64,000 nt of DNA from Deltaproteobacteria bacterium (lineage in GTDB: Bacteria > Desulfobacterota > Dissulfuribacteria > Dissulfuribacterales > UBA5754), in the NCBI GenBank assembly GCA_036574075.1, contig JAINCN010000031.1:386-64385 (forward strand). Reading direction: 5' to 3'. Below the pieces are notes generated by a model that saw only the letters and a program-made list of their open reading frames with translations, was not told the origin of the DNA and did no database searches. Of the stretch, positions 1,041 through 46,140 are shown piece by piece (within the stretch, counting starts at the first letter, position 1; each line of letters opens with the position of its first letter). The position numbers and the translations under genes are program-made.

Positions 1041-1215
1041 CCTGAATCCGTGAGATATGCACTCAACCTTTCGATTTCACAGCATAAGCCTACGGCCGGG
1101 GTATTTGTGGAGTGAGGCGCCCATGGACGGGGCTCGAACGGCAAACCTGCCCCCATGGACGGGGGCTATTTGCCGCACGAAACAAATACCCCGGCCGTAG
1201 GCTCACGGATTCAGG
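1041..1215 (+). mobile_element. MITE-like repeat, copy 1 (175 bp)
   Basis: Perfect 14-bp TIR CCTGAATCCGTGAG / CTCACGGATTCAGG. Internal perfect 20-bp palindrome CCTACGGCCGGGGTATTTGT / ACAAATACCCCGGCCGTAGG. Flanked by direct GATATT (1035-1040 and 1216-1221). Near-identical copies lie at 21628, 30868 and 45122. Confidence 0.85.
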
Positions 1216-1275
1216 GATATTCTGAAGGATTTCCTATTACTGGGTATCTGCTGTTAAGGAACAAGGAGAATTATC

Positions 1276-21507: not shown

Positions 21508-21627
21508 TCTTGGCGAAGGCCGCAATGGGACCTCGAAAAGGCCGTGTTCGCGGTCCCCTCAAAGTTCTTCGACAACGATGGTTCCACTCAACTTGACCTC
21601 CTTGCCGTTGTCGTCGATGAACGAGAT

Positions 21628-21801
21628 CCTGAATCCGTGAGATATGCACTCAACCTTTCGATTTCACAGTATAAGCCTACGGCTGGGGTATTTGTGGAGT
21701 GAGGCGCCCATGGACGGGCGCCGTCGGCAAATCTGCCCCCATGGACGGGGGCTATTTGCCGCACGGAACAAATACCCCAGCCGTAGGCTCACGGATTCAG
21801 G
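21628..21801 (+). mobile_element. MITE-like repeat, copy 2 (174 bp)
   Basis: Same TIRs and architecture as copy 1. Flanked by direct GAGAT (21623-21627 and 21802-21806). Confidence 0.85.
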
Positions 21802-22019
21802 GAGATGTAACCCCCCTGTATCTCGATCTTGAATCGCCCTTCCCATTCCCGAATGACGCGGCCGTTCATGTCGTAAAGTGTGATCTTGCGCTTGAGTCCG
21901 ATGATGTCGGACTTGATGTGCTTGATCTCCTTGCGCTGCTTTTCCGTGCACGCGGGGATCCCGAAGGCGATGGCAAGACCGAGGACCGCGCTGATGATCA
22001 GTCGCATAGCCGCCTTCAT
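21789..22019 (-). CDS. small lipoprotein, C-terminus supplied by MITE copy 2
   Basis: 76 aa with a signal peptide and lipobox (LAIAFGIPAC). The ATG overlaps the iorB stop (ATGA). The last 4 codons and the TGA stop (21789-21801) lie inside the MITE TIR. Confidence 0.6.
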   Translation of the reverse strand: MKAAMRLIISAVLGLAIAFGIPACTEKQRKEIKHIKSDIIGLKRKITLYDMNGRVIREWEGRFKIEIQGGYISLNP

Positions 22020-27348: not shown

Positions 27349-27475
27349 TGAAATCGAAAGCCGATGCCTCTGAAAAGGCCTGATCCGCAGATCCTGTTCC
27401 ATATTTCTGACCTGAATCCGTGGGCCGACGGCCGGGATATCTGCTTCGTGCGGATTGCGCAGAATAACTGCCATT
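27349..27475 (-). repeat. degenerate MITE relics
   Basis: 27411-27475 (CCTGAATCCGTGGGCCGACGGCCGGGATATCTGCTTCGTGCGG...) matches roughly 80% of the TIR plus inner-stem arm of the MITE. 27349-27360 (TGAAATCGAAAG) matches its unique segment. Confidence 0.5.
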
Positions 27476-30705: not shown

Positions 30706-30867
30706 TCCTTCCCGTCCATCTTTCGTTTTTCTTGTCTTGCCCCGGCAGGTCTGCAGGTGCATACGGGACACTGGCAAAAGACCTTGGATGATGATGTGAT
30801 AAGGAAACATGGTGAGTCGAGGCGGGCCCGTGCATTCGTTGACACAGGGCCTGGTGATGCTATCCTT

Positions 30868-31043
30868 CCTGAATCCGTGAGCCTACGGCCGGGGTATTTG
30901 TTTCGTGCGGCAAATAGCCCCCGTCCATGGGGGCGGATTTGCCGTTCGAGCCCCGTCCATGGGCGCCTCCATCCACAAATACCCCGGCCCGTAGGCTTAT
31001 GCTGTGAAATCGAAAGGTTGAGTGCATATCTCACGGATACAGG
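30868..31043 (-). mobile_element. MITE-like repeat, copy 3 (176 bp, inverted orientation)
   Basis: TIRs CCTGAATCCGTGAG / CTCACGGATACAGG (1 mismatch). Flanked by direct ATCCTT (30862-30867 and 31044-31049). Confidence 0.85.
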
Positions 31044-31106
31044 ATCCTTCTGCGATGCAAACGGGAGGCTTACTGAGTATCTGCATCTTGCTTGTACAGG
31101 TCCGGC

Positions 31107-31703
31107 ATGGGTGATGTGACAATGAAAAACCCGCCCTTTTCCCCTTCGGGGATTGGTTTTGATATCGACGGCGTGGTGGCAGACACCATGGCAGCATTCT
31201 TGCGCATTGCACGGGAGGAGTACGGTCATTGCCATCTGGAGAAGGAGCGCATCACCTCATATTGGCTCGAGGAGTGCCTCGACATCCCTTCGGAGACGGT
31301 AGGTGCCATCATCCAGCGCATTCTCGATGACCCCTTCGGGGTCGGACTCGAGCCCATAGTCGGGGCCAGGGATGCCCTCCTGCGTTTCGCAGCAAAGGGA
31401 CCGCTCACGTTTGTCACGGCCCGCCCTTCTGGAGAGTCCATCGAGGAGTGGCTCTGTGACCTCCTTCCCGAGGTCCCTCGGGGGGATCTTCGGGTCATCG
31501 CGACCGGCAGGCATTCAGCGAAGAAGGACGTCCTCCTGGAATTCGGGATAGGTGCCTTTGTGGAGGACCACCTGGAGACGTGCGAGGATCTCCATGCCGC
31601 GGGTATATGGGCTGCTGTCTTTGACCAGCCATGGAACAGGGCGCGCACCCCCTGGATACGTGTGGGTTCCTGGGAGGAGATCCTTGCCCTGACAGGGGAG
31701 TGA
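31107..31703 (+). CDS. HAD-superfamily hydrolase
   Basis: Motif I FDIDGVVAD. About 198 aa. Start is uncertain: ATG 31107 or 31122 (the track gives TTG 31092). Confidence 0.65.
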   Translation: MGDVTMKNPPFSPSGIGFDIDGVVADTMAAFLRIAREEYGHCHLEKERITSYWLEECLDIPSETVGAIIQRILDDPFGVGLEPIVGARDALLRFAAKGPLTFVTARPSGESIEEWLCDLLPEVPRGDLRVIATGRHSAKKDVLLEFGIGAFVEDHLETCEDLHAAGIWAAVFDQPWNRARTPWIRVGSWEEILALTGE

Positions 31704-45006: not shown

Positions 45007-45121
45007 GGAGAGCTCCTTGAAGGATATCCTCTCAGGGGATGGTCTTAAGTATCTGATCTTCTCTCGGCGCTTGGATGATCTCCAACTAACGGCATGATTT
45101 CCTTTGCTTCCGAATCTGCTT

Positions 45122-45296
45122 CCTGAATCCGTGAGCCTACGGCCGGGGTATTTGTTTCGTGCGGCAAATAGCCCCCATCCATGGGGGCGGATTTGCCGTT
45201 CGAGCCCCGTCCATGGGCGCCTCACTTTACAAATACCCCGGCCGTAGGCTTATGCTGTGAAATCGAAGGGTTGAGTGCATATCTCACGGATTCGGG
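45122..45296 (-). mobile_element. MITE-like repeat, copy 4 (175 bp)
   Basis: TIRs CCTGAATCCGTGAG / CTCACGGATTCGGG. Flanked by direct TGCTT (45117-45121 and 45297-45301). Lies between the pstB stop (45304) and the phoU start (45006). Confidence 0.85.
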
Positions 45297-45303
45297 TGCT
45301 TTT

Positions 45304-46140
45304 TTAACCGTAGCGTCCTGTGATATAATCTTCTGTTCTTTTGTCTTTTGGGTTTGTGAAGAGGGTTTTGGTATCCTGCATTTCGATCATCTCTCCGAGA
45401 TACATGAAGGCAGTGAAATCGGAGACACGGGCTGCCTGCTGCATGTTGTGCGTAACAATGACGATAGTGAACTGGCTCTTGAGTTCATAGATGAGTTCTT
45501 CGATCTTGTAGGTGGAAATAGGATCGAGGGCGGAGCAGGGTTCATCGAGGAGGATCACCTCGGGCTCGATGGCAATGGCTCGTGCGATCACGAGGCGCTG
45601 CTGCTGACCGCCTGAGAGCCCTAAGGCGTTGTCCTTGAGCCGATCGGCGACCTCGTCCCACAAGGCGGCCCTTTTAAGGGATCTTTCCACGACCTCGTCC
45701 AAGGTCTTTCGATTTTTTATCCCCTGGATCCGAAGCCCGTAGGCCACGTTTTCATAGATAGATTTGGGAAACGGATTGGGTTTTTGGAACACCATGCCGA
45801 CTCGTCTTCTGAGGTCAGCAACGTTGATCGATTTGTCATAGATGTTTATCCCGTCGAGGAAGATCTCTCCTGTCACACGGCAGCCGTCCACGAGGTCGTT
45901 CATCCGGTTGAAACAGCGGAGCAGGGTTGATTTGCCGCATCCGCTCGGGCCGATAAAGGCCGTGACCTGATGGCGAGGAATGGCCATGTTCACATGAAAG
46001 AGGACCTGTTTAGATCCATAGAAGAGGTCGAGATTCTTTACCTCTATGATGACATCTTCCGGATCGACCCCGCCTTCTCGCTTGCTGAACGCCTTGTTAC
46101 GTGCGGCCAGGTCGATGCCGTGCTTTGTGGTTTCATTCAT
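45304..46140 (-). CDS. pstB: phosphate ABC transporter ATP-binding protein
   Basis: 278 aa with Walker [10 protein letters not shown], signature LSGGQQQRL, and the PstB-specific C-terminus. Confidence 0.98.

Follow-up and report, generated by a model that had tools for sequence, protein, structure and literature searches.

A repeat of about 175 bp occurs four times in the 64,000-nucleotide stretch of DNA analysed here (the window), which belongs to a metagenome-assembled genome (MAG). Its inverted ends enclose a palindromic core, and this raises the question of what kind of element it is, which enzyme mobilised it, and what its structured core represents. Our analysis indicates that it is very probably a genuine non-coding MITE (a miniature transposable element bounded by inverted repeats) with IS1380-type ends. 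On insertion, the MITE duplicates 5 bp of an A+T-rich target; the orthologous sites of the sister species lack it; and its 14-bp termini are those of an insertion sequence (IS) of the IS1380 family.

A preliminary description of the window had reported four full copies, and all four were recovered, with lengths of 174-176 bp (Table 1). The 14-bp terminal inverted repeats (TIRs), CCTGAATCCGTGAG on the left and CTCACGGATTCAGG on the right, are perfect in copies 1 and 2 (14/14), while copies 3 and 4 carry one mismatch in the left TIR (13/14). The nested palindrome is also as described: arms of 20-22 bp enclose a 73-nt core with two hairpins, each of which has ATGGAC in its loop. The spacer inside the left TIR had to be corrected from 34 to 32 nt; it may derive from subterminal sequence at the left end of the parent IS, to which it is weakly similar. 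Copy 1 is 98.3% identical to the family consensus, and the single-strand fold of the 175-bp element reaches -101.7 kcal/mol (z = -10.2).

The gene context held up as well. Copies 1 and 4 begin 11 nt and 7 nt past the stop codons of nusG and pstB, respectively, and copy 2 lies at the 3' end of a lipoprotein gene, whose last 23 codons it has replaced. That gene, on the minus strand (window positions 21560-21951), encodes a 93-aa lipoprotein with a weak match to DUF5052; its truncated frame now enters the MITE and stops at 21664, and the orthologue in the sister species is intact. The element creates spurious open reading frames, such as PWTGLERQIRPHG, and contains no transposase gene. The earlier statement that the window has no transposase at all is narrowed here to the IS1380 family, the only family for which the window's contig was screened, and which gave no match there.

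Table 1. The repeat family in the window, with the parts of copy 1 listed separately (TSD, target-site duplication).
Feature	Position	Strand	Remarks
MITE copy 1	1041-1215	+	175 bp; between nusG (496-1029) and rplK (1276-1701)
Copy 1 TSD, GATATT	1035-1040 and 1216-1221		
Copy 1 left TIR, CCTGAATCCGTGAG	1041-1054	+	same sequence as at the left end of the intact IS1380-family IS (L032:230)
Copy 1 spacer	1055-1086	+	32 nt; left side only
Copy 1 inner palindrome, left arm	1087-1108	+	pairs with 1182-1203
Copy 1 hairpin 1	1116-1134	+	loop ATGGAC at 1123-1128
Copy 1 hairpin 2	1139-1175	+	loop ATGGAC at 1155-1160
Copy 1 inner palindrome, right arm	1182-1203	+	
Copy 1 right TIR, CTCACGGATTCAGG	1202-1215	+	matches the right ends of the IS1380 relics in the same MAG and of L032
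MITE copy 2	21628-21801	+	174 bp; 23 codons before the end of the lipoprotein gene
Copy 2 TSD, GAGAT	21623-21627 and 21802-21806		
Solo right-end fragment (TIR + arm)	27411-27453	-	43 bp; intergenic, with a DUF6178 gene on one side and a response-regulator gene on the other
MITE copy 3	30868-31043	-	176 bp; 48 nt upstream of an NT5C-like gene (31092-31703)
Copy 3 TSD, ATCCTT	30862-30867 and 31044-31049		
MITE copy 4	45122-45296	-	175 bp; between pstB (45304-46140, minus) and phoU
Copy 4 TSD, TGCTT	45117-45121 and 45297-45301		

The four window copies are bracketed by the 5-6-bp duplications that had been claimed for them (Table 1), and the same signature extends through the genome. The source MAG (G000) comprises 1.99 Mb in 66 contigs, with 57.5% G+C. 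BLAST defined 120 full copies whose flanks can be read; in 64 of them a perfect direct repeat of 5 bp or more adjoins the TIRs (5 bp in 47, 6 bp in 16 and 7 bp in one), and none has a perfect duplication of 3 or 4 bp. When elements were instead defined by their TIRs, the abutting pentamers were identical in 51 of the 148 with flanks and differed at one base in 17 more; the next pentamers outward in the same 148, which served as an offset control, gave no identical pair and four with one mismatch. The pentamers that were duplicated differ among insertions, and A+T makes up 74.5% of them, compared with 42.5% of the genome.

The empty sites can be read in the sole congener, the sister species 'Deltaproteobacteria bacterium UBA5754' (G001). 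We matched the joined flanks of the four window copies against this genome and then extended the search to 20 further sites. None of these 24 orthologous sites is occupied by the MITE, and 12 align across the junction with a single pentamer. At the site of copy 2, the alignment runs unbroken (...GATGAAC GAGAT GTAACC...), with one GAGAT and the lipoprotein gene intact; the site of copy 3 is empty, with a single ATCTTT; and ten of the 20 further sites are cleanly empty with one pentamer each, sometimes with one substitution. An empty site also exists within the source MAG, where a MITE on contig C29 is flanked by GAGAA and the uninterrupted paralogous sequence on C27 has one GAGAA. Thus, the 5-bp duplications and the single-pentamer empty sites bear out the proposal that a transposase inserted this element, as opposed to its being a REP-type repeat.

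The sister-species sites corresponding to copies 1 and 4 lack the MITE and carry a different repeat a few bases away. This repeat, of 130-160 bp, lies in the nusG-rplK and pstB-phoU spacers of the sister species (C49:1180-1343 and C8:3245-3379; L038 and L039), is flanked by direct repeats of about 10-12 bp, and is inserted a few bases from the positions of the MITE in the source MAG. Since two element families occupy the same two spacers, these spacers have been hit independently twice.

By BLAST, the MITE family covers 253 loci in the MAG, 148 of them at least 150 bp long, and takes up 35.75 kb, or 1.8% of a small and otherwise compact genome. A search for the TIR with up to two mismatches returned 236 forward and 252 reverse matches. 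Most copies lie in short spacers, often directly past stop codons, and any effects on the host look incidental. Many contigs terminate within a MITE copy, and the family accounts for many of the contig breaks and spurious open reading frames in the MAG and in the sister species; we would advise annotators to mask it. Beyond the source MAG, the element was found in the sister species and in a few short contigs of one sample that had been binned into other MAGs, and a genome of another family in the same order (G023) showed a resemblance confined to the core. Searching for the end pattern also returned single matches in records of Acidobacteria, Thermoplasmata, Magnetococcales and Chloroflexia, which had no wider similarity to the element and were set aside as chance.

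Which transposase could have moved a 175-bp element with no coding capacity? The combination of a 5-bp duplication and ends that start with CC pointed to the IS1380 family, of which ISEcp1 and IS1247 are examples. A search of the source MAG with the NCBIfam model NF033539 returned fragments only, as partial matches to the model. Two of these relics (C27:2-391 and C29:4082-4805) are paralogous, decayed copies of an IS1380-family transposase: C27 has suffered an internal deletion, and C29 has frameshifts and a MITE insertion. Both terminate, about 213 bp past the stop codon, in CTCACGGATCCAGG, which is the right TIR of the MITE with one change (13/14). Both also begin at residue 166, at a shared contig break, so that the N-terminal 165 residues fall outside the assembly.

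The preliminary description had suggested looking for a longer, transposase-carrying element that shares the TIRs, and an intact one was found. Querying with the read-through sequence of the relic retrieved 4492 relatives, the closest of which are 66-67% identical proteins. An intact IS of 1637 bp lies on a metagenome contig from ENA (L032:230-1866), with the left end CCTGAATCCGTGAG, an exact 14/14 match to the MITE TIR, and the right end GTCACGGATTCAGG. Its transposase (P0002) is 66% identical to the relic and scores 281 bits against the 180-bit cut-off of NF033539; another protein, P0013, reaches 335 bits against the same 180-bit cut-off of the IS1380 model. This IS comes from a sample unrelated to the MAG, and its own duplication is unreadable on that contig. 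Six further members of the clade, about 56% identical, have the ends CCTKAATCCGTGA, and one of them, present as the same element on two contigs (L044 and L045), is flanked by a 5-bp duplication, AGAAA. An IS1380 element from the same order as the MAG (L026) has the ends CCTGAATAATTCATAAA and a 4-bp duplication, CTAA. Beyond the 14-bp TIR, the similarity between the MITE and the IS ends is weak.

In the assembly of the source MAG itself, no intact IS1380-family transposase was found; the copies present are decayed and lie at contig ends, where assembly gaps are possible, and the genome may yet have a resident driver transposase. Pairs of TIRs spaced 250-6000 bp apart in this genome bracket ordinary genes, and none encloses a transposase. 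A tblastn search of the MAG with the IS1380 transposases of same-order relatives gave no matches because those sequences are too distant.

Taken together, the 4-5-bp duplication class and CC-starting ends typical of IS1380, the TIR identical to that of the intact IS, and the transposase relics with the same right end in the MITE's own genome make this a clear case of an IS1380-family MITE. Unlike members of that family, which are represented here by an element of about 1640 bp, the MITE measures 175 bp and has no coding capacity, and its interior is a palindromic two-hairpin module instead of a deleted IS interior. A 2024 review of prokaryotic MITEs does not mention IS1380 (PMC10969869).

Our model proposes that an IS1380-family DDE transposase supplied in trans would bind both 14-bp TIRs and make 5-bp staggered cuts in the target, the repair of the gaps then giving the duplication. 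The MITE would have originated when the ends of such an IS came to flank a palindromic module of about 117 nt, with its 20-bp arms and two AYGGAY-loop hairpins. Amplification would have come later, once the two species of the genus had diverged, and would have brought the family to 253 loci with about 150 full copies; indeed, the absence of all tested insertions from the sister species points to a burst after speciation. Copies have a median identity of 93.4% to the consensus (6.6% diverged; range 77-99%). No two copies are identical and a single pair exceeds 99%, a comparison to be read with the caveat that short-read assembly loses the youngest copies and that near-identical ones may be lost at contig ends. 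The lack of an intact transposase in the assembly and of any identical pair of copies indicates a family that is probably old and no longer mobile. With the assembled transposase copies all decayed and the MITE copies diverged, the amplification burst has probably ended, and the family probably gives a dated picture of an element that spread after speciation and became extinct together with its transposase.

The core of the MITE required a separate analysis. The element had been presented as undescribed, a claim that we soften for this part, as the core resembles the Rfam motif TwoAYGGAY (RF01731); the rest of the interpretation of the element stands. A window copy aligns to RF01731 over its full length with 28.7 bits (E = 0.01), below the gathering score of 43. 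Genome-wide, one copy reached 44.3 bits, above that threshold, and another 31.4. At the gathering threshold, an Rfam search of the window returned two tRNAs only, and a search of the loci of relatives and of the sister species, in a larger search space, gave no TwoAYGGAY match. In an alignment of 102 copies, 97 have ATGGAC, ACGGAT, ATGGAT or ACGGAC as loop 1, and 93 have a loop 2 that fits AYGGAY; nearly all of the variation falls on the two Y positions. The arms show many compensatory double changes (81 cells in 5-6 pairs); the small hairpins are close to invariant in this genome and hence carry no covariation signal, so that only the arms covary.

Two further observations bear on how the core relates to its shell. 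In the genome from another family of the order (G023), a homologous module of arms and two hairpins, 72-76% identical (L003:1440-1660 and L007:1340-1560), has compensated stems and loops that are not AYGGAY, and it sits in a shell with different ends, GGGAACCTTGAAA. The module thus appears older than the MITE shell, and portable. Moreover, 18 of 151 TIR-bounded elements have the core in the opposite orientation to the shell (for example, C2:15160-15335 and C21:67519-67700, the latter just beyond the window), as expected if the inverted 20-bp arms had undergone recombination or template switching with each other. The TIR also holds ACGGAT, itself an AYGGAY word, in the window (1202-1215) and in all TIRs. 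In each element, CAYGGAY occurs three times on one strand and once on the opposite strand, which may be coincidence. A metagenome scan for a wider association, with the TIR plus two CAYGGAYG words as the pattern, gave two unrelated contigs, whose resemblance to the MITE is limited to the TIR and which BLAST does not match to anything in the source MAG; this collection lends no support to such an association.

Could the structured core, and not the transposon, be the real unit? On this reading, the copies are functional structured RNAs of the TwoAYGGAY type kept for regulating their neighbours, the mobile shell is incidental, and the two AUGGAC hairpins serve either as binding sites for a protein such as CsrA or as processing signals on transcripts. 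The full-length match to RF01731, with one genome copy above the threshold, argues for it, as do loop changes that fall nearly all on the Y positions and the same scaffold with compensatory stem changes in the different shell of another family. In addition, AUGGAC has the sense orientation of the flanking operons at copies 1 and 4, and a CsrA homologue is encoded in the genome (C20:41062-41220, 78.5 bits; also in the sister species), but the presence of this gene alone proves nothing for an RNA role. Against these points, AUGGAC shows no strand bias relative to co-directional flanking genes (24 sense, 17 antisense; p = 0.35), the core is flipped in the 18 elements mentioned above, the homologues in the other family lack AYGGAY loops, and the near-invariant small hairpins give no covariation signal. 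Most copies also score under the Rfam threshold, and with the sister-species sites empty no copy is conserved by position. We therefore consider it distinctly unlikely that an RNA function explains the family. The broader proposal that the AYGGAY module is a portable functional cassette of various MITE shells, with orphan TwoAYGGAY 'RNAs' being generally transposable-element cargo, also seems unlikely to us. If it were true, the roughly 300 AUGGAC hairpins could, as RNA, titrate or recruit CsrA or a nuclease in transcripts or, as DNA, the CAYGGAY words, one of which also lies in the TIR (CACGGAT), could be extra transposase-binding sites.

The extreme hairpin (-101.7 kcal/mol) and the preference for intergenic spacers and positions past stop codons would suit a REP/BIME-like palindromic repeat spread by a Y1 enzyme (RAYT, of the IS200/IS605 type) or by recombination, with no DDE transposase involved. 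However, such systems make no target duplication and would be expected to use a fixed target motif, whereas here the duplicated 5-bp sequences vary, the empty sites hold a single pentamer, and the terminal sequences are those of an IS1380-family DDE element; we give this explanation almost no credence. A different question is whether another 5-bp-duplicating family, such as Tn3-derived TIMEs, IS701, ISH3 or IS1634, could have mobilised the MITE. The duplication length alone does not discriminate these families from IS1380, and several other multi-copy elements of this genome are unassembled. Yet the TIR matches an IS1380-family element at 14/14 positions and the in-genome relics at 13/14, and the 38-bp GGGG-type ends of Tn3 are absent from an element that ends in the 14-bp CCTGAATCCGTGAG, which leaves a negligible chance for such a driver. 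We thus retain the IS1380-family MITE as the best explanation.

How does this MITE compare with elements already known? Like the Correia elements of Neisseria, RUP of Streptococcus and the MaeMITEs of Microcystis, it combines a length in the 150-250 bp range with TIRs, target-site duplication and high copy number, and like classical bacterial MITEs it occupies intergenic spacers and gene ends. Its share of the genome, 1.8%, equals the 1.8% of MaeMITEs in Microcystis (PMC2779907). At 174-176 bp and with no transposase gene, it also falls within the usual size limit of roughly 600 bp for prokaryotic MITEs. Unlike classical MITEs, it has a different parent IS family, a nested palindrome with an invertible core, and a density, about one locus per 8 kb, that is very high for a 2-Mb genome. 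TIMEs are likewise non-autonomous and duplicate 5 bp of target, although their Tn3-type ends are roughly 38 bp long, in contrast to the 14-bp IS1380-type ends of the MITE.

The comparison with the TwoAYGGAY RNA (RF01731; Weinberg et al. 2010, PMC2864571) concerns the core only. Both have two adjacent AYGGAY-loop hairpins inside a long outer stem. In contrast to that RNA, most MITE copies fall below the threshold, and the motif here forms part of a demonstrable transposable element and shows no strand bias; furthermore, the hosts of TwoAYGGAY are gut Clostridia or Gammaproteobacteria, whereas the MITE resides in an uncultured 'Deltaproteobacteria' lineage. Of the threads followed here, the most interesting connects an orphan RNA motif with a mobile element; no host function is indicated for the core. 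A TwoAYGGAY-like fold tied to a demonstrably mobile element offers a testable explanation for why the motif is scattered with no gene linkage.

Other repeats accompany the MITE in these genomes. One of them, which we call X and which lies outside the window, is a long imperfect palindrome of 396 bp that starts with CATACCTCAAT and has no Rfam match. It adjoins the right end of the MITE in at least seven places (C41:13490-14210, C15, C20, C6, C3, C17 and C13). On C41, a composite made of MITE positions 1-175, X and MITE positions 26-175 is bracketed by the duplication TAATT; thus, the MITE ends appear to have moved cargo. Many contig ends of the source MAG share sequence with one another (C15, C44, C52, C60, C7, C58, C23, C45 and others): GCTCTCTTAATGTAGGGAGAATAAATCGCC... 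is common to eight of them, GATGGCGGAGCAGACAACGAG... to six, and the C-terminal coding end of an integrase-like gene to four, so that other multi-copy elements are absent from the assembly. Finally, a short repeat rich in CACAGAG/CTCTGTG adjoins several MITE copies (for example, at C10:~650-720 and on C38 of the source MAG) and is multi-copy in the sister species.
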